A stretch of DNA of 11,242 bases from a virus (IMGVR_UViG_2657245509_000010); one strand, 5' to 3'; shown: positions 2,904 to 11,020, counted from the stretch's first letter. Notes: generated by a model from the letters alone, not told the origin. Made by a program: numbers and translations.

Positions 2904-3049
2904 TCACGCTGGCGGCACACAGCCGCCACACATCAATCATCTGAACACAGAGCTATAACCATGAAGATTGAATATACGCCAGAACGTGGGCGGGGATTCG
3001 TTCGCCCTGGTGAGACTGGAAAACCACAAAATTGGGGTTTTTCAGGCAT

Positions 3050-3078
3050 AAAAAAAGCGGCCCCGAAATGGAGCCGCC
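3050..3078 (-). terminator. Probable rho-independent terminator for minus-strand transcripts (GC stem then T7 on the minus strand)
   Basis: Plus strand 'aaaaaaagcggccccgaaatggagccgc'; on the minus strand a gcggc/gccgc stem is followed by TTTTTTT. Confidence 0.45.
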
Positions 3079-3172
3079 TTTCTGAACAGATAACCCGCTG
3101 CGCCTTATGTGTATATGATCCCAAACATAAGCACGGGGATGATAGCCGCTATCAGGCTGGTGGGCAATGCTA

Positions 3173-3361
3173 TCAGTCTGGTTCAGTTCGTTGCCATACC
3201 TGCAATGGGCGCGTTTCCCTGTACTCTTTAAGGAATTGCTCAAGGGCAAAAGCACATGGCGCGAATCTTTCTGATTCATGCTCTATCTTTCTGCGCCGTC
3301 TTTTCCGTGCCGGTGATAATGTTTTGGTCAATTCTTTATCGGTCATTGTGTTGTCCTGCAT
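3173..3361 (-). CDS. Hypothetical small basic protein, downstream of the RHH gene on the minus strand (start uncertain; possibly ATG at 3346)
   Basis: ORF-track ORF; arginine/lysine-rich segment 'ARKRRRRK'; no strong SD, so low confidence. Confidence 0.3.
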   Translation of the reverse strand: MQDNTMTDKELTKTLSPARKRRRRKIEHESERFAPCAFALEQFLKEYRETRPLQVWQRTEPD

Positions 3362-3403
3362 AGCAATGCGCCGTAATACCTCACACCACGGCGCTGATAG
3401 TTT

Positions 3404-3577
3404 TTATCCTTTGGGTTCTATGCCGCGTTGCTGTAATTCTTTGCGGAGAACGCGTTTAATCCAAGTGGCTAAAGATGTGTCGCCATCGGCCTTAGCAGCT
3501 TCTTCTAGCTGCGCTCTGAAGTCTTCCGGTAATCGCATTTGGTATGGAGGCGAACGTTTTTCTAATGGTGTTGACAT
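3404..3577 (-). CDS. Arc/MetJ-type ribbon-helix-helix transcriptional repressor (57 aa); not in the ORF track
   Basis: Minus-strand translation 'MSTPLEKRSPPYQMRLPEDFRAQLEEAAKADGDTSLATWIKRVLRKELQQRGIEPKG' fits the Arc-family pattern (beta-strand 'YQMRLP', then two helices). Divergent from the rightward operon, with palindromic operators at its 5' end. Confidence 0.75.
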   Translation of the reverse strand: MSTPLEKRSPPYQMRLPEDFRAQLEEAAKADGDTSLATWIKRVLRKELQQRGIEPKG

Positions 3578-3645
3578 GGTAATTACCCTTTATTGCTATA
3601 CCTACATGGTAATTACCATTGTACTTGCCATTACACAAAAATCAA
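3571..3645. promoter_or_regulatory. Divergent control region with two copies of the palindrome GGTAATTACC (3578-3587, 3608-3617) and a minus-strand promoter (-10 TACAAT 3618-3623, -35 TTGATT 3640-3645); a perfect TTGACA on the plus strand at 3571-3576
   Basis: Both palindromes are preceded by 'ACAT' and are 30 bp centre-to-centre. One abuts the RHH start codon and the other abuts the putative -10, the classic autorepressor layout. The plus-strand -10 is weak. Confidence 0.6.
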
Positions 3646-3707
3646 CGCCCCGCAGTGCTGGGAACACATACGGGGCGTCTAACCAACAACGTAAACTAGG
3701 AGCCGTT

Positions 3708-3905
3708 ATGGTTGCCGTAAATCATATACCACACCTTGTACACACACAAACGGCCTTTGTGTGGCGTTTTCTGGCACTGAGTGCCGGAGAATCTCAAATC
3801 ATCCACGTAACCGCCTGGACGGAACGCGAAGCGCGTAACCGTTGCCCGTCCGGTTGTGTTGCTGTATTTGCCGCCCGTATTCGTCAGGAGGTGCGCCATG
3901 ATTAA
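3708..3905 (+). CDS. Icd-like (host cell division inhibitor-like) small protein, 65 aa
   Basis: 'FVWRFLALSAGESQIIHVTAWTEREARNRC...VFAARIRQEV' resembles the Icd-like proteins of enterobacterial P4-like and PICI elements (from memory). RBS 'aggag' 6 nt upstream. It is the true gene inside the chimeric 314-aa track ORF. Confidence 0.6.
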   Translation: MVAVNHIPHLVHTQTAFVWRFLALSAGESQIIHVTAWTEREARNRCPSGCVAVFAARIRQEVRHD

Positions 3906-4110
3906 TCTGTCACTTACTGACCTTAACCGCATTCAGTTTCGTGAGAAATTCACAGGGCAGCTACTGGTCAATGTGGATAAAGGTCGCGTGGTGTGTAATT
4001 ACCACTTACCAGATGAAGCAATTGTCGCCACAAGGGAATCATTACAGGAAATCACAAAACGTGCCGGAATGATTAACACGAATATTCAGGGGATGCTTTA
4101 TGCACAATAA
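3898..4110 (+). CDS. Hypothetical protein (70 aa)
   Basis: ATG overlaps the stop of the upstream gene (translational coupling); no family recognised. Confidence 0.5.
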   Translation: MINLSLTDLNRIQFREKFTGQLLVNVDKGRVVCNYHLPDEAIVATRESLQEITKRAGMINTNIQGMLYAQ

Positions 4111-4795: not shown

Positions 4796-5095
4796 ATGAA
4801 ACTTAAATATTCTGGCTTAACTGCCAGTGGCAACACTCACCCTAAATTTACGCGCGGTGATATTTACCGCGACCAGTACGGCGGCACGGTAATGATTAAG
4901 GGCGTGGAAGAACGGCGCGTAACCTACCGCCGTGAAGGTTACGAATATGATTGCGTGATGCCTGTTTATCAGTTCCGGCGTGATTTTTCTCTGGTACAGA
5001 CCGCGCCGCATAACGTGCCCACCAGCAACGCCAGGGCACGGGCAAACATCCAGAAGCTGAAAACCATGGTTAACGGATTCAGGGGCAAGAAATGA
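4796..5095 (+). CDS. Hypothetical protein (99 aa)
   Basis: SD 'ggaga' about 10 nt upstream; stop overlaps the start of the replication ATPase gene. Confidence 0.6.
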   Translation: MKLKYSGLTASGNTHPKFTRGDIYRDQYGGTVMIKGVEERRVTYRREGYEYDCVMPVYQFRRDFSLVQTAPHNVPTSNARARANIQKLKTMVNGFRGKK

Positions 5096-6492
5096 AAAGC
5101 GCACCGAACTTAAAAAAACAGCCTTACGACAAGATGACCGAAGTCATTATTTTTGCGGGTAGTGATGCCTGGGCACATGCGAAACAGTGGCAGGAACAGG
5201 ACGGGCGACTGGCTGGCGATAATGTGCCTCCCGTTGTGCTGGCTGATGATCAACTGGATGAACTGGCAGAACTGAGAATCATCGACGAGGGGCGCTATTG
5301 TGTCCGGCTGTACAAGGCAGGCCACATCAGGCCATCAAATATTAATGCCATTGCGCACAAGCTGGCGGCGGCGGGTGTAACTGATGCGAATTATTACCCC
5401 GAAGGGATGCACAGCCATATGCGGGAGAACTGGCGCGAATACCTGGAACGGGTGCGCGGGAAAGAGCCGGCGGAAGAAAAAAACCACCAGCGAAAAACCA
5501 CGCTACCGATGAGCGTTGGATCTACCGGATACGACACGCAACTGGATTACGTGGTTAAGGGGATTATTCCGGCGGTATCGCTATGCAGCATATACGGGGC
5601 TAGCGGGTCCTATAAATCATTCCTTGCCGGATCGTGGGCGTGCCATGTTGCCACTGGTCGCCAGTGGGGAGGCCGCAGGGTTGCACATGGTGCGGTTCTC
5701 TATGTGGTTGGTGAAGGCGGTATAGGTGTTCCGCGTCGTGTAAAAGCCTGGGAGGTTGTGCACGATGAGCAGGTGAAAAATCTGTATCTGGTAAACCGCC
5801 CCATCTTTCCGGCTGCCCCGCTTGATGTTGATGAAATGGTTATCGCTGCCCGTCAGGTGGAGCGGGAAACGGGTAAACCTGTACGCATGATTATTCTGGA
5901 TACGCTGGCGCGTTGCTTTGGTGGGAATGATGAAAATGATTCCCGTGATATGGGGGCGTTTATCCGTGGTTGTGACGAACTGAAACGACGCACAGGGGCC
6001 ACGGTGCTGGTGGTTCACCATTCCGGCAAGGATGAGACGAAAGGCGCGCGCGGTTCCAGTGCATTTCGTGCTTCGCTGGATGCTGAATACCGGATACGCA
6101 GGGAGGACGCAGGAAGCGAAGCGCTGGTTATCTCATGCACCAAAATGAAGGACGCGGAGGAACTCAAAGAAGCCGCATATGACTTACGCGTGGTGGAGCT
6201 TTTTACCGACGCTGACGGTGAATTAATCACGTCGCTGGTGGTGGTGGATGATCCGCGCCCTCCTGTTGAACTGGAGCGCATCGAGGAGGCAGGGAACAAG
6301 ACGGAAAACCATACCGCGCTATGGGGGTGCATCCGTTCACGCACACAGAACGGCGACAAGTGCACGATCCCGCTGTTACGTGATGACATGAAAAAGCTGG
6401 GGTATGAAATGAAAAACTTCCGGCGCTGGCTGTACAAGCTGGAAAAAGATGGGGTTATTCGTATCGATGGGGATGATGTAGCGCCGCTATAA
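5092..6492 (+). CDS. RepA/DnaB-like RecA-fold replication ATPase (satellite replicase-helicase) with a probable C-terminal winged-helix domain
   Basis: P-loop-like 'GASGSYKS', Walker-B-like 'MIILDTLARCFGG', and 'VLVVHHSGKDETKGARGSSAFRASLDAEYRIRRE' typical of RepA-like helicases; C-terminus 'WLYKLEKDGVIRI' looks wHTH-like; an iteron array lies immediately downstream. Confidence 0.8.
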   Translation: MKSAPNLKKQPYDKMTEVIIFAGSDAWAHAKQWQEQDGRLAGDNVPPVVLADDQLDELAELRIIDEGRYCVRLYKAGHIRPSNINAIAHKLAAAGVTDANYYPEGMHSHMRENWREYLERVRGKEPAEEKNHQRKTTLPMSVGSTGYDTQLDYVVKGIIPAVSLCSIYGASGSYKSFLAGSWACHVATGRQWGGRRVAHGAVLYVVGEGGIGVPRRVKAWEVVHDEQVKNLYLVNRPIFPAAPLDVDEMVIAARQVERETGKPVRMIILDTLARCFGGNDENDSRDMGAFIRGCDELKRRTGATVLVVHHSGKDETKGARGSSAFRASLDAEYRIRREDAGSEALVISCTKMKDAEELKEAAYDLRVVELFTDADGELITSLVVVDDPRPPVELERIEEAGNKTENHTALWGCIRSRTQNGDKCTIPLLRDDMKKLGYEMKNFRRWLYKLEKDGVIRIDGDDVAPL

Positions 6493-6684
6493 AAGTGAGG
6501 AGCAAAAGCGAGGGGGATAGAAAGAGGGCCAAAATTAGCCCGCTCTCCCTCACTTTTCGACCTGTATACATCCTCAAAAGTGAGGGGTAAAAAAATACTT
6601 ATGAAACACACACATAGAAAAACCGAAAATCCCAACTGCGACGAAGTGAGACGCTTGAAAAAGTGAGGCGAAAAAGTGAGAGGT
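6491..6684. repeat. Iteron array (at least six copies of AAGTGAG(G/A) in both orientations); putative replication origin
   Basis: Copies at about 6493, 6549 (inverted), 6579, 6643, 6660 and 6674, immediately 3' of the replication ATPase gene. Confidence 0.65.
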
Positions 6685-6692
6685 TGCGAGAA

Positions 6693-6944
6693 ATGACCCA
6701 AAAACGCAGAGACAGAACAGAGCCAAAATATAAAGCGTTAGACATGACTGAGCACACCTTAAAGGTGGCAATCAGAACGATAGACCGCCACACGCGGGAA
6801 GGATACGCGAAGGAACATCCCGACCTGATAAGCGCATTCATGACCACGGCGGCGGCAAACTTTGCCACGCTGACAGAACGGGAGATTGCCGAAGCGGAAC
6901 AGGTAACAACCATCAACGTTAAAACCGGAGAGGTGGAATTATGA
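6693..6944 (+). CDS. Hypothetical protein (83 aa; alternative GTG start at 6663)
   Basis: ATG with SD 'gagagg'; the upstream in-frame extension would overlap the iterons. Confidence 0.5.
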   Translation: MTQKRRDRTEPKYKALDMTEHTLKVAIRTIDRHTREGYAKEHPDLISAFMTTAAANFATLTEREIAEAEQVTTINVKTGEVEL

Positions 6945-7351
6945 CGGCACAGATAGCCGCTTACGGGCGGCTGGTGGACGACCCGCAGGTAAAACAGACC
7001 AGCAAGGGCACACCGATGACGCTGGCGCGTATGGCGGTATCTTTGCCATGCAGCCAGGCACAGGACGGACAGGCGACGTTATGGTTATCGGTCATCGCAT
7101 TTGGCAAACAGGCCGGCTTCCTGGCTAAACATCAAAAAGGCGATGTTGCCAGCGTATCCGGCACGATGCAGGTAAGCCAGTGGACCGGACAGAACGGAGA
7201 AACGCGGCAGGGCTGGCAGGTTATCGCAGACAGCGTAATCAGTGCCCGCGCGGCACGTCCAGGCGGGAACAGACGCAAAACCACAGGCACACAGGGTAAT
7301 CAGCCACCAGCGGGAGGCGATGACCCTTACGGTGATGATATTTCGTTCTGA
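6941..7351 (+). CDS. ssb: Single-stranded DNA-binding protein (SSB-like OB fold with acidic C-terminal tip)
   Basis: Glycine/proline-rich linker and C-terminal 'DDPYGDDISF', comparable to E. coli SSB '...DDDIPF'; OB-fold-like N-terminus; start overlaps the upstream stop. Confidence 0.75.
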   Translation: MTAQIAAYGRLVDDPQVKQTSKGTPMTLARMAVSLPCSQAQDGQATLWLSVIAFGKQAGFLAKHQKGDVASVSGTMQVSQWTGQNGETRQGWQVIADSVISARAARPGGNRRKTTGTQGNQPPAGGDDPYGDDISF

Positions 7352-8236: not shown

Positions 8237-8443
8237 ATGGCTGAAGAGAAAAAAAGCGGTGTTTCGGTGTACATAAGCCCCGAAATCGTGGAGGTGCTCA
8301 AGCAGCGCCACAAAAAAAACTATGAAGCTGGCGTTGCGGCTGGACTGGATCCGCTGATGACGCCGGAGCCGTCGATAGGTTCACTTGTACGCTCTTATTT
8401 ACTTGCGGCGCTTGGGATGCATAAAAATTATGGGGGTGAATAA
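8237..8443 (+). CDS. Hypothetical protein (68 aa) translationally coupled to the major capsid gene (alternative start 8204)
   Basis: Stop and start overlap as TAATG at 8441-8445; position corresponds to where scaffold or head-accessory genes sit in head operons. Confidence 0.5.
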   Translation: MAEEKKSGVSVYISPEIVEVLKQRHKKNYEAGVAAGLDPLMTPEPSIGSLVRSYLLAALGMHKNYGGE

Positions 8444-9498
8444 TGGCAGGCAAAGCAACGGCACTTAACACTAACCAGCTTTTCATGTACCTGAATCGCG
8501 GGGATATTGCGGATTTTAAATTCAGCCCTCTGTTTACCACGCTGTTTTTCCCGAACGTGGCGACATTCAGCACGCAAAACATCATGCTGGATACCCTGGA
8601 CATTGAAGAAGTCACCATGTCGGCGTTTTGTTCGCCTATGGTGGGTAGCCAGGTTCAGCGCGATAAAGGGTACGAAACCAGCACAATCAAACCTGGCTAC
8701 ATGAAGCCAAAGCACGAAATCGATCCAACGAAAACCATCATGCGCATGGCTGGAGAAGATCCGGCACAGCTTAACGACCCTACCTATCGCCGTATGCGCC
8801 TGATTACTGGCAACATGCGCCGCCAGATAAACGCCATTAAGGCACGCGTGGAATGGCTGGCGGTGAATGCGGTAACGACCGGAAAAAACATCATTGAGGG
8901 CGAAGGCATAGAACGCTATGAAATCGACTGGAAAATACCGGAAAACTGCATCATAGAGCAGGCCAAGGGTAAAAAATGGTCCGAGCAGGATAAAGACATG
9001 CACGACCCAATCTATGACATCGAGCTTTATGCTGATCAGGCTGGTTGCCCCGCAAACGTCATGATTATGGGCGCTGAGGTATGGCGCACATTACGCAGCT
9101 TTAAAAAATTCCGTGAGCTGTACGATCTTTCCCGTGGTTCAGAATCCGCCGCCGAACTGGCCTGTAAAAACCTGGGCGAAGTGGTGAGCTTTAAAGGCTA
9201 TCTTGGTGATCTGGCCCTTATCGTCTATTCCGGCAAATACACTGACAGCGATGGTACCGAAAAATATTTCCTTGAGCCTGATTTGCTGGTCCTGGGTAAC
9301 ACCAACAATAAAGGGCTGGTGGCCTATGGTGCGATAATGGATCAGGAAGCGGTAAGAACGGGCGCAACACAAAACATGTTTTACCCGAAAAACTGGATTG
9401 AGGACGGCGATCCGGCGATTGAGTACGTGCAGACACACAGTGCACCGCAGCCGGTACCGGCAGATATTCGCAAATTTGTTACCGTCAAAATTGGTTAA
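8443..9498 (+). CDS. Major capsid protein, lambda gpE-like (HK97 fold family)
   Basis: Blocks 'KFSPLFTTLFF', 'PGYMKPKHEIDP', 'DPTYRRMRL', 'FRSFK', 'YPKNWIEDGDPAIEY' align with lambda gpE 'KFDPLFLRLFF', 'PGYVKPKHEVNP', 'DPAYRRRRI', 'FRSFK', 'YPKNWVTTGDPAREF' (recalled sequence). 351 aa against about 341 aa for gpE. Confidence 0.9.
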   Translation: MAGKATALNTNQLFMYLNRGDIADFKFSPLFTTLFFPNVATFSTQNIMLDTLDIEEVTMSAFCSPMVGSQVQRDKGYETSTIKPGYMKPKHEIDPTKTIMRMAGEDPAQLNDPTYRRMRLITGNMRRQINAIKARVEWLAVNAVTTGKNIIEGEGIERYEIDWKIPENCIIEQAKGKKWSEQDKDMHDPIYDIELYADQAGCPANVMIMGAEVWRTLRSFKKFRELYDLSRGSESAAELACKNLGEVVSFKGYLGDLALIVYSGKYTDSDGTEKYFLEPDLLVLGNTNNKGLVAYGAIMDQEAVRTGATQNMFYPKNWIEDGDPAIEYVQTHSAPQPVPADIRKFVTVKIG

Positions 9499-9510
9499 CG
9501 GGGGGATTCT

Positions 9511-9846
9511 ATGGACACTCCATACATTGAGTTATTTGCAGGCAGTCAGCAGGTATCCACGACGTTGGTACATTTTGCCGCTGATGCTGGCGTTATTCAG
9601 GAATTTACCCCGCTGATGCTGGCAGACAATGGCGAGTTTAAGCCGTGGGATGGTCAGGAATCTGGCAAGGCTGTTTATCTGACCTCGTACCCTGTGGACA
9701 CGTCAAAGCAGAAATCAGCACAGTGTTACAAGACGGGGATATTCAATATTGCCGCCGTTAACTGGCCTGAGAGCGTCGACACCGATGCGAAAAAATGCGC
9801 CGCCTTTGCGGGTTCCGGCGTATCCGTTCAGCCGCTGGCCCGATAA
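9511..9846 (+). CDS. Head decoration protein, lambda gpD-like
   Basis: 'TPLMLADNGEFKPWDG...KKCAAFAGSGVSVQ' aligns with gpD 'TPLMLDTSSRKLVAWDG...KKRTAFAGTAISIV'; 111 aa against 110 aa. Confidence 0.85.
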   Translation: MDTPYIELFAGSQQVSTTLVHFAADAGVIQEFTPLMLADNGEFKPWDGQESGKAVYLTSYPVDTSKQKSAQCYKTGIFNIAAVNWPESVDTDAKKCAAFAGSGVSVQPLAR

Positions 9847-9858
9847 GCAGGGGGAACG

Positions 9859-10272
9859 ATGGCAACGAATGAAAGCATCATGACGCTACCGCTGGCGAGT
9901 AAATTTAAAGTCGAAGCGCGGGCAATGGCTGACAGAGGTTTATCAACCTATGAGGCCGTATATCAACTAAACAAACTGGAAGAGCAGGACAAGCCGTGCG
10001 CTGATGCGATTATGGCGCTTCATGAGCATAAAGACTATCAGCCGCTGTTGCGTGCAATGGCAAACGTGCCTTGTATCGATGTTGGTACGGCTAAAAGCAT
10101 CCTTAGCATGACCATAGAGCAGGAACGTCCGAAGGTTGCGCCGGAACTTACCGCAGCCTTTGAAAACTTTATGGACATGCACAGCCCGCAAGCCGTATCA
10201 GCTGGCATGGCATACGATGGCAGAAACCAGGGCGATGACGGCGACATCGATCGCATACTGAAAACCATCTGA
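9859..10272 (+). CDS. Hypothetical protein (137 aa) between the decoration gene and cos
   Basis: Good SD 'aggggga'; no resemblance to lambda FI/FII by eye. Confidence 0.6.
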   Translation: MATNESIMTLPLASKFKVEARAMADRGLSTYEAVYQLNKLEEQDKPCADAIMALHEHKDYQPLLRAMANVPCIDVGTAKSILSMTIEQERPKVAPELTAAFENFMDMHSPQAVSAGMAYDGRNQGDDGDIDRILKTI

Positions 10273-10277
10273 GACAA

Positions 10278-10300
10278 GGCCGGAGAAATCCGGCTTTTTT
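10278..10300 (+). terminator. Rho-independent terminator (GCCGGA-GAAA-TCCGGC then T6), third copy of the hairpin family
   Basis: Immediately 5' of cos. Confidence 0.8.
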
Positions 10301-10368
10301 ACGGGTCCTTCCTGGAATTATGGCCCGTTACGGGGCGGCGACCTCGCGGATTTTCGCTATTTATGAGC
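10301..10368 (+). other. cos site (cosQ-cosN), lambda-like; predicted 12-nt cohesive end GGGCGGCGACCT at 10333-10344
   Basis: 'acgggtccttcctggaattatggcccgttacg|gggcggcgacct|cgcggattttcgctatttatga' against lambda 'ACGGGTCCTTTCCGGTGATCCGACAGGTTACG|GGGCGGCGACCT|CGCGGGTTTTCGCTATTTATGA' (from memory); located about 135 bp upstream of the Nu1-like gene. Confidence 0.85.
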
Positions 10369-10438
10369 CTTTTCAGGGTGGTGGTGGTGGTTTTGTTGTT
10401 TGATCTATCTTTATGAATGAAAAGGGAAAGATGCAAGC

Positions 10439-10476
10439 AATACACCAACCTGAAGCAGTAATTAAGTTGGTGTATT
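10439..10476 (+). promoter_or_regulatory. 11-bp inverted repeat AATACACCAAC-N16-GTTGGTGTATT abutting the terS start codon; candidate element-specific cosB R sites or translational control hairpin
   Basis: Read directly; sits where lambda has the inverted R2/R1 Nu1-binding sites before Nu1. Confidence 0.5.
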
Positions 10477-10477
10477 A

Positions 10478-11020
10478 ATGAAATCTCATCTGATGAACAA
10501 AAAAAACATGGCGAAAAGCTGCCGTGTAAGTGCGACAGCGTTCGACAAGTGGGGAGTAACTCCCGTTGAGCGTAAAGGCCGTGAGGCGTTTTATGATGTT
10601 GCCAGCGTGATAGAAAATAGGGTTAACAATGCAATTAGCCAGCTTATAAACGACAAAGGCGAGATTGACGATGATGAACTTTTACGAGTCAGGATCAGAT
10701 TACTGACAGCACAGGCAGAGGCGCAGGAACTTAAAAACGATCGCGATCGCGGTGACGTGATTGATACTGAGTTTTGCCTGTACGCGCTTTCAAAGCTGGC
10801 GAGTCAGATTTCATCAATCATGGACAGCCTCCCGCTTACTATGCAAAGGAGCTTCCCACAGATTACCCCCGCCATGCTGGACAGGCTTAAAAGGGAAGTG
10901 GTTAAAGCCTGTAATGCCAGTGCCAGAGTTGCCGACAACCTCCCACAGATACTGGCTGATTACTTGAAAGAAACAACCGGAAACGTACCGGAAAAGTTGC
11001 TACAGAAGAAAGGCGAGTAA
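10478..11020 (+). CDS. Terminase small subunit, lambda Nu1-like
   Basis: 'LTAQAEAQELKNDRDRGDVIDTEFCLYALSKLASQISSIMDSLPLTMQRSFP' aligns with Nu1 'LTRAQADAQELKNARDSAEVVETAFCTFVLSRIAGEIASILDGLPLSVQRRFP'; N-terminus 'NKKNMAKSCRVSATAFDKW' against 'NKKQLADIFGASIRTIQNW'. 180 aa against 181 aa. Start may be the ATG at 10493. Confidence 0.9.
   Translation: MKSHLMNKKNMAKSCRVSATAFDKWGVTPVERKGREAFYDVASVIENRVNNAISQLINDKGEIDDDELLRVRIRLLTAQAEAQELKNDRDRGDVIDTEFCLYALSKLASQISSIMDSLPLTMQRSFPQITPAMLDRLKREVVKACNASARVADNLPQILADYLKETTGNVPEKLLQKKGE

Follow-up and report, generated by a model that had tools for sequence, protein, structure and literature searches.

A conserved iteron array 3' of an SF4-type rep gene as the probable replication origin of an Escherichia coli O157:H7 PICI

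Within the 11,242-nt stretch of DNA analyzed here (hereafter "the window"), the array of short iterons at positions 6491-6691 is very probably the replication origin (ori) of an EcCIRM12579-type PICI, bound by the island's own Rep. This reading brings together the anatomy of the array, its conservation among relatives and coupling to Rep alleles, the identity of the element, and a predicted winged-helix fold at the Rep C-terminus. A preliminary description of the raw sequence had proposed a candidate satellite origin 3' of rep, which agrees with the published PICI/SaPI layout (PMC6092414, PMC9371898), with the conserved position of the array, and with the way its sequence changes with the Rep allele; that description appears to have been right about where the origin lies in this satellite, which most E. 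coli O157:H7 genomes carry. Both the element and this type of origin organization are already in the literature, with all PICIs identified in PMC6092414 presenting iteron sets that flank an AT-rich region just 3' of rep, and the finding is correct and known in kind. The supplements of that paper contain no iteron sequences as text, and a literature search with the iteron string returned unrelated papers only. The additions made here are modest, and include the helicase class of Rep, the breadth of the array across Enterobacterales, and a correspondence between Rep residue 442 and one base of the iteron.

The window is a classical Gram-negative PICI of the EcCIRM12579 type, located between roxA and phoQ in E. 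coli O157:H7. Segment 5000-7400 matches many E. coli O157:H7 chromosomes at 100%, with >350 identical copies mostly derived from one clonal lineage (O157:H7), and in strain TW14359 the element is flanked by roxA (ycfD) and phoQ. The supplement of Fillol-Salom et al. 2018 (PMC6092414) has an 11.2-kb PICI entry for exactly this TW14359 interval, and gives the O55:H7 copy the name EcCIRM12579, with the att core GGACATATTT. This att core is present in the window at 940-949. Compared to EcCIRM12579, 465/466 Rep residues and 230/231 positions of the origin region are identical (about 99.6-99.8% identity), and these matches bear out the earlier suggestion that the element is a satellite. Its size falls in the range of Gram-negative PICIs (~10-15 kb), with an integrase at the left end, a PICI att site, and alpA followed by rep in a unidirectional (+) arrangement. 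The gene order in TW14359 is integrase, AlpA-like regulator, Icd-like genes, small unknown genes including DUF4222, "helicase RepA family protein", 83-aa unknown, SSB, PerC, lambda E-like capsid, decoration protein, and TerS. The neighboring icd-like gene is annotated as a pseudogene, and the rest of the island's genes are intact. Induction, replication, and packaging that depend on a helper phage have been published only for EcCICFT073 and a few other islands. The main genes referred to below are as follows, with the island SSB a probable accessory of the replicon.

1100-2350, + strand: int (ORF, Pfam/RefSeq annotation)
2715-2903, + strand: alpA-like gene (ORF, Pfam/RefSeq annotation)
5092-6492, + strand: rep, encoding a 466-aa putative initiator-helicase (Pfam AAA_25, 2.4e-43; RefSeq "helicase RepA family protein")
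6693-6944, + strand: downstream 83-aa gene (phrog_1231), which bounds the origin and is an inconstant partner of the array
6941-7351, + strand: SSB (Pfam SSB, 9.3e-16)
10478-11020: TerS homologue, island-encoded

The array fills the 200-nt gap between the end of rep (6492) and the next ATG (6693). All six exact matches to AAGTGAGR in the 11,242-nt window fall in 6493-6681 (189 nt), five on the forward strand (6493, 6578, 6644, 6661, and 6674) and one on the reverse strand (6548-6555). Only 0.47 matches are expected in the whole window, none of 200 dinucleotide shuffles reached six, and no second cluster of this motif occurs anywhere in the 11,242 nt. A longer repeat unit, AAAAGTGAGG, is present in four exact copies. 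Overall, seven to eight iterons can be recognized, in two sets around a ~47-nt AT-rich stretch, with four sites on the left (6491-6585) and three to four on the right (6642-6691):

6491-6500, + strand: iteron 1, AAAAGTGAGG, overlapping the TAA stop codon of rep and found at the same offset in relatives
6504-6513, + strand: iteron 2, AAAAGCGAGG, one mismatch, 13 nt after iteron 1; relatives have a consensus iteron there
6548-6557, - strand: iteron 3, reading CCTCACTTTT on the + strand, left arm of an inverted pair and the most conserved site across all relatives
6558-6575: 18-nt spacer of the inverted pair, with the palindrome TGTATACA at 6563-6570
6576-6585, + strand: iteron 4, AAAAGTGAGG, right arm of the inverted pair
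6586-6632: AT-rich stretch between the two iteron sets, from base composition
6642-6651, + strand: iteron 5, CGAAGTGAGA, from motif search
6659-6668, + strand: iteron 6, AAAAGTGAGG, from motif search
6672-6681, + strand: iteron 7, AAAAGTGAGA, 13 nt after iteron 6
6684-6691, + strand: degenerate iteron 8, TTGCGAGA, overlapping the ribosome-binding region of the next gene

The preliminary description had reported at least six AAGTGAG(G/A) repeats in both orientations within about 200 bp, directly 3' of a RepA-like gene; the repeat count and orientations were recovered here, its coordinates (6491-6684) proved accurate, and iteron 1 even overlaps the rep stop. The inverted pair formed by iterons 3 and 4 has 11-nt arms that are 100% complementary, and its spacer includes a TATA(T/C)A core kept across genera (TATATA in the 80% consensus line of relatives). 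The AT-rich stretch at 6586-6632 is a probable melting site, with 40-nt windows at 6583-6631 reaching 72-75% AT, within the top 2% of the window (window mean 51%). Two of the eight sites, iterons 2 and 8, are degenerate, and the iteron 8 site reads TTGTGAGA in EcCIRM12579 and GGTGAGGAA in relatives.

The protein encoded directly upstream combines an N-terminal domain (aa 1-125), a RecA-type SF4 core (AAA_25, aa 148-315), and a predicted C-terminal winged helix (aa ~400-466). The N-terminal domain had no family match, and the same domain is found in the otherwise unrelated Pri-Rep of EcCICFT073. For the core, the sole match in a PDB sequence search was a weak one to the RSF1010 RepA core (1g8y, E 0.0055), and an NCBIfam search gave sub-threshold RadA matches only. 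Pfam recognized no primase domain in the window Rep, which counts against the origin model, and ~700-aa Rep homologues from other genera have a Zn-ribbon primase plus Toprim domain ahead of the core, as in T7 gp4. Phage homologues annotated as primase-helicase or DnaB-like match residues ~143-395 only, and not the winged helix (396-466). Two features of this C-terminal region are used below:

6289-6489, + strand: region encoding the predicted winged helix (aa 400-466), from AlphaFold model and Foldseek
6415-6417, + strand: codon of Asn442, in the first turn of the predicted recognition helix (aa 440-452)

AlphaFold gave a full-length model of mediocre overall quality (pLDDT 65), with confident regions at residues 1-125 and 400-466, the latter at a pLDDT of 84-96 (about 90), and the isolated C-terminal 76 residues were modeled with a pLDDT of 87. 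The predicted topology consists of a helix (405-419), a short strand, two further helices (426-435 and 440-452), and a beta hairpin (456-465). Helix 3 spans 440-452 in the full-length model and 443-452 in the C-terminal model, so that residue 442 is placed either in its first turn or directly ahead of it. The best Foldseek matches in the PDB were winged-helix DNA binders only (MotA, MexR, PcaR, IdeR/DtxR, Fur, LexA, MCM8, ORC2, and DnaD), with TM scores of 0.6-0.76, probabilities of 0.9-0.99, and non-significant E-values (0.07-0.3), such values being expected of a domain this small (76 residues). These models and matches support a winged-helix domain at the Rep C-terminus, as the preliminary description had anticipated, at the level of a predicted fold. 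An SF4 (RepA/T7 gp4-like) helicase with a winged-helix tail is a modest addition, and differs from the tested initiators of SaPIs and EcCICFT073.

The array is conserved well beyond E. coli. Scanning one genome per species yielded 80 loci with Rep homologues at 49-72% identity, from Xenorhabdus, Citrobacter, Kosakonia, Kluyvera, Pantoea, Pectobacterium, Serratia, Morganella, Dickeya, and other genera, and the position of the array is kept in about 90 related Enterobacterales loci. Nearly all loci display 4-10 related repeats in the 250 nt past the rep stop, at shared offsets of roughly +1/+14 (forward), +56 (reverse), +86 (forward), and +168/+180 (forward), including the pattern of a single reverse copy, and the motif is ~20x denser past rep than in the other 0.5 Mb of the loci. 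A lack of conservation of the iterons in related elements had been named beforehand as an observation that would argue against an origin, and the opposite was found, with the same offsets across ~90 loci. Compared with six E. coli relatives, the window shows 81-89% identity in iteron columns and 51-64% in spacer columns. The 83-aa gene, DUF4222, SSB, PerC, and TerS are missing from most related loci, leaving Rep as the only constant partner of the array. The relatives include a circular 16,971-bp K. pneumoniae "plasmid" record, which corresponds to a related capsid-encoding island with the same replicon type, and has Ser at the 442 position and nine GTGCGGC repeats past rep. The same origin architecture reaches a wide range of genera, among them Xenorhabdus, Pectobacterium, Serratia, Morganella, Kosakonia, Pantoea, and Klebsiella.

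Comparison with EcCICFT073 further links the repeats to Rep. This island occupies the same chromosomal site, with a 94% identical AlpA and similar flanking genes, and its Rep shares the first 122 aa with the window Rep (62% identity). The remainder of the two proteins is unrelated, that of EcCICFT073 being D5_N/DUF5906/Pox_D5 (SF3, P4 alpha-like) and not AAA_25, and the intergenic repeats found at the same position 3' of rep are TGTCTACC/GGTAGAYA. Since AlpA and the flanks are alike while the Rep body and the repeats differ, the repeats follow the Rep body. In EcCICFT073, a rep-ori fragment maintains a plasmid, and deletion of either rep or ori abolishes this maintenance (PMC6092414); rep-ori function was demonstrated in that paper for EcCICFT073 only.

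Coupling between Rep and iterons is also visible at the level of a single residue. Each element uses one iteron variant throughout its copies, either GTGAGG (window and Xenorhabdus), GTGGGG, or GTGCGG. A search for specificity residues based on columns ≥85% conserved per iteron class was unproductive, as both His and Lys occur within the G class; residue 442 instead came to light by comparing close E. coli relatives. In strain E2863 (locus L085), Rep is 95-98% identical to the window Rep up to residue 395 and 83% identical over the last 70 aa, and all iterons are GTGGGG (A to G). For loci with a clear array only (n = 71), the residue aligned to Asn442 (motif K-N-F-R-R-W-L) and the variable iteron base were distributed as follows:

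Asn at residue 442: iteron base A, 25/25 loci
His at residue 442: iteron base G, 11/11 loci
Lys at residue 442: iteron base G, 28/28 loci
Ser at residue 442: iteron base C, 7/7 loci

The residue thus corresponds to the base in 71/71 loci, with zero exceptions. On a neighbor-joining tree built from the helicase core alone (residues 135-395), the residue changes at least 9 times and the base at least 8 times, always jointly. In an out-of-sample set of 6 loci, for which proteins were picked by residue 442 (Asn, His, or Ser) and contigs then checked, 5/6 arrays were clean, and 1/6 was mixed but had the predicted base in most of its copies. GTGAGG arrays accompanied two Asn proteins, GTGGGG arrays two His proteins, and a GTGCGGC array one Ser protein, and the mixed array belonged to the Asn protein P0013 (L091), with a majority of A and two G sites. 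An additional Gly class was associated with a GTGCGCG array.

The region encoding the winged helix adjoins the origin, and block recombination alone would yield some of this co-variation without any contact. Two observations nevertheless speak for a function, namely the uniform base within each element and the return of identical residue-base pairs in differing helix sequences. From these sequence comparisons, we infer a direct contact between residue and base, and consider it about evenly balanced whether residue 442 sets the base at iteron position 6 by direct readout, with Asn specifying A, His or Lys specifying G, and Ser or Gly specifying C. The suggestion made at the outset that the winged helix could bind the iterons gains from this tracking of the variable base by a helix 3 residue across 71 loci. 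Rep-specific iteron sequences, as expected of a PICI/SaPI origin, are seen both in the contrast with EcCICFT073 and in the residue 442 correspondence.

By analogy with SaPI Reps, helicases that load themselves and bind iterons of this sort through a C-terminal winged helix (PMC9371898), and with EcCICFT073, the window Rep would bind the array, melt the DNA, and load itself. In the proposed scheme, a helper phage would induce the island, leading to its excision, after which the island's own Rep would bind the iterons through the recognition helix of its winged helix, with Asn442 reading the A of GTGAGG. The resulting local crowding would lead helicase rings to assemble at the inverted pair and AT-rich stretch, where the DNA would melt and the SF4 helicase load itself. 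The island SSB would then cover the single-stranded DNA, and the host would supply priming and polymerase activities to complete replication.

Other functions of the array were weighed against this origin reading. The array could provide transcriptional or translational control for the downstream operon (83-aa gene, SSB, PerC, and capsid), bound by Rep or another regulator, a role that would fit both the tendency of plasmid iteron-binding initiators to autoregulate and the overlap of the last sites (6672-6691) with the ribosome-binding region of the gene at 6693. We consider control in place of an origin unlikely: no sigma-70-like promoter was found in 6300-6900, the array follows rep even where the downstream genes are unrelated, the repeats of EcCICFT073 are entirely different despite its 94% identical AlpA, and the corresponding site of EcCICFT073 acts as an origin (PMC6092414). 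As a secondary function of the origin, a regulatory role may exist. Several other features were sought in and around the array. An Rfam scan of the whole window with E-values up to 1 had no match, and DnaA boxes occur at the expected rate in the window (24 matches vs. 23.7 expected), with none in the origin (6480-6700). The one terminator candidate in 6300-6900 is a minus-strand hairpin at chance level, and the antisense ORFs 6015-6701, 6574-6771, and 6599-6916 (- strand) had no Pfam match and are absent from the RefSeq annotation. As alternative binders, AlpA, the 83-aa protein, DUF4222, SSB, PerC, and TerS were rejected, since each either fails to follow the array from locus to locus or stays the same where the iterons differ.

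Some pac sites contain repeats and the island encodes a TerS homologue (10478-11020), yet a packaging site (pac or cos-like) for the island small terminase is a very improbable reading of an array that accompanies the 3' end of rep in every relative and co-varies with a Rep residue. Strain E2863 has an unrelated TerS while its iterons differ by a single base, and a homologue of the window TerS is absent from the short flanks of every other locus, although this is a weak test. The array could also be the decayed, non-functional origin of a degenerating island in the O157:H7 lineage, given that iterons 2 and 8 carry mismatches that relatives lack, that the icd-like neighbor is annotated as a pseudogene, and that the >350 identical copies largely represent one clonal lineage. 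Such decay is improbable for an island in which Rep is intact and nearly identical to that of EcCIRM12579 (465/466), other genes are intact, and six exact iterons, the inverted pair, and the AT-rich center are all present. Finally, the region has a strong excess of A on its top strand (AT skew 0.39-0.52), and a purine-rich low-complexity region arising by chance and without specific function could be imagined, but the 0/200 shuffles with six matches, the positions kept across genera, and the concerted base changes make this extremely improbable, the comparative data refuting it.

PICIs move virulence and defense genes, and it is their replication after induction by a helper phage that makes this transfer efficient. 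If the residue 442 correspondence does reflect direct readout, the winged helix and origin would be swapped as one cassette among the SF4-helicase satellites of Enterobacterales, defining replication-specificity groups that would let related islands coexist or avoid cross-activation. Such a code between initiator and origin would be natural, minimal, and re-programmable, and would operate in a helicase class that had not been characterized before as a self-loading satellite initiator. Direct readout predicts that Rep prefers the A-type AAAAGTGAGG over AAAAGTGGGG and AAAAGTGCGG, and the correspondence predicts that a single-residue swap in Rep would switch origin specificity.

One of the closest known systems is the Gram-negative PICI origin of EcCICFT073, with which the window shares island family, att site (GGACATATTT), gene order, an ori directly 3' of rep, and an AT-rich stretch surrounded by short iterons of either orientation. 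The two differ in their Rep, an SF3 D5-type protein in EcCICFT073 vs. AAA_25 (SF4) in the window, and in their iterons (TGTCTACC vs. AAAAGTGAGG). SaPI origins (SaPI1, SaPI5, and SaPIbov1; PMC9371898) similarly combine a helicase-initiator bearing a C-terminal winged helix (predicted in the window) with 6-12 short iterons directly past rep and an AT-rich center, and have no separate loader or initiator evident. Their Reps are SF3 or MCM-like AAA+ proteins from Gram-positive hosts, without sequence similarity to the RecA-type SF4 Rep of the window. Their iterons also lie on two sides of the AT-rich region in opposite directions (PMC9371898), whereas the window has a single reversed copy (6548-6557) and a right set that is entirely forward, an inexact fit to the SaPI pattern.

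T7 gp4-type primase-helicases and RSF1010 RepA belong to the same RecA-type core class (AAA_25) as the window Rep, but have no sequence-specific DNA-binding domain and use other recognition factors (RepC for RSF1010). The alpha protein of phage P4 joins a primase, an SF3 helicase, and a C-terminal winged-helix origin binder that reads octamer repeats, and requires a second cluster, crr, ~4.5 kb away. Like the window, P4 is a satellite replicon in which one polypeptide is both helicase and C-terminal winged-helix binder (predicted in the window); unlike the P4 ori-crr system, the window has an AAA_25 (SF4-type) core, no recognizable primase, and a single repeat cluster. Iteron plasmids (pPS10, R6K, RK2, and F) also place repeated initiator sites beside an AT-rich unwinding element, but these iterons are 17-22 bp long and usually located upstream of rep together with DnaA boxes, vs. 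8-10 nt and 3' of rep in the window. Their Rep_3-type double winged-helix initiators recruit host DnaB, whereas the proposed binder in the window would be the helicase itself, and the window has 8-10 nt units, no DnaA box in 6480-6700, and no Rep_3 match in Pfam. By the features tested, the window origin is neither an iteron-plasmid nor a P4 ori/crr origin, and belongs to the PICI/SaPI type, with at least six short iterons in two sets flanking an AT-rich region directly 3' of rep, and a C-terminal winged helix as the predicted fold of Rep.

The head-gene module of the island lies downstream of the origin-proximal genes and includes a 137-aa protein that weakly resembles the C-terminal end of head maturation proteases:

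window 8443-11020: lambda gpE-like major capsid, gpD-like decoration protein, 137-aa protein and TerS

Neither a portal nor a large terminase is present in the window, so the head module is partial, and the island is a classical PICI rather than a capsid-forming one. Three E. coli relatives of the island (L083, L086 and L088) share its replicon, but downstream of the origin they have a gene fusing a ClpP-like prohead protease to a major capsid protein in place of the lambda E-like capsid gene. Since the window-type replicon stands beside this fusion, the replication module is common to classical and capsid-forming islands. The same replicon type, with nine GTGCGGC iterons, occurs in CP018459.1, a K. 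pneumoniae entry of 16,971 bp that was submitted as a non-mobilizable circular plasmid:

CP018459.1 4867-5080, minus strand: origin

This record encodes an integrase, an AlpA-like gene, Rep, capsid, adaptor and terminase; what was labelled a plasmid is in fact a PICI-like island that encodes a capsid. Its replicon type and iterons suggest that the assembly captured an episomal form.

Among related loci, iteron variants can be set against Rep residue 442. The origin of one metagenome contig (L091, 2192-2476) is mixed, with a majority of GTGAG sites and two GTGGGGA sites, one of which forms the inverted pair's left arm, despite Asn at position 442 of its Rep (P0013). This mixed array may reflect a recent recombinant, or the mismatch may be tolerated. 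Enterobacter-type Reps carry Gly where residue 442 aligns (context R-K-G-F-K/T-R-W-L) and pair with another iteron variant, (A/G)TGCGCG, which differs at the following iteron positions too:

L095 2195-2480: Gly-type locus with (A/G)TGCGCG iterons
L096 1740-2025: Gly-type locus with (A/G)TGCGCG iterons

The left spacer of the window origin contains a small hairpin whose sequence is not conserved among E. coli relatives:

window 6526-6541: GC-stem hairpin, GGGC-CAAAATTA-GCCC

The top strand is markedly A-rich across 6451-6900 (AT skew 0.39-0.52), a bias that runs past the iterons into the first gene downstream. Near matches to the DnaA box occur at chance level across the whole window. Two perfect matches, spaced ~120 nt apart, lie just upstream of an ORF starting at 4100:

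window 3972-3980 (-): perfect DnaA-box match, TTATCCACA
window 4098-4106 (+): perfect DnaA-box match, TTATGCACA

At 2961-3905 lies a 314-aa ORF that RefSeq annotates as two features, a truncated Icd-like pseudogene and an Icd-like gene of 65 aa.

The final 60 residues of this 314-aa ORF match phage families labelled transcriptional repressor.

The N-terminal domain of Rep had no match in Pfam and is confidently predicted to adopt an alpha/beta fold:

window 5092-5466: Rep residues 1-125
L002 5242-5616: counterpart

At this position, Reps from other genera have a Zn-ribbon and Toprim primase, or nothing. With a module lacking a Pfam match in place of Zn-ribbon and Toprim, the window Rep therefore has no recognisable primase. 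These first 125 residues share 62% identity with the N-terminus of the SF3 Pri-Rep of EcCICFT073, a PICI at the same chromosomal site, while the remainder of the two proteins is unrelated; the role of this common module may be tied to host or helper.
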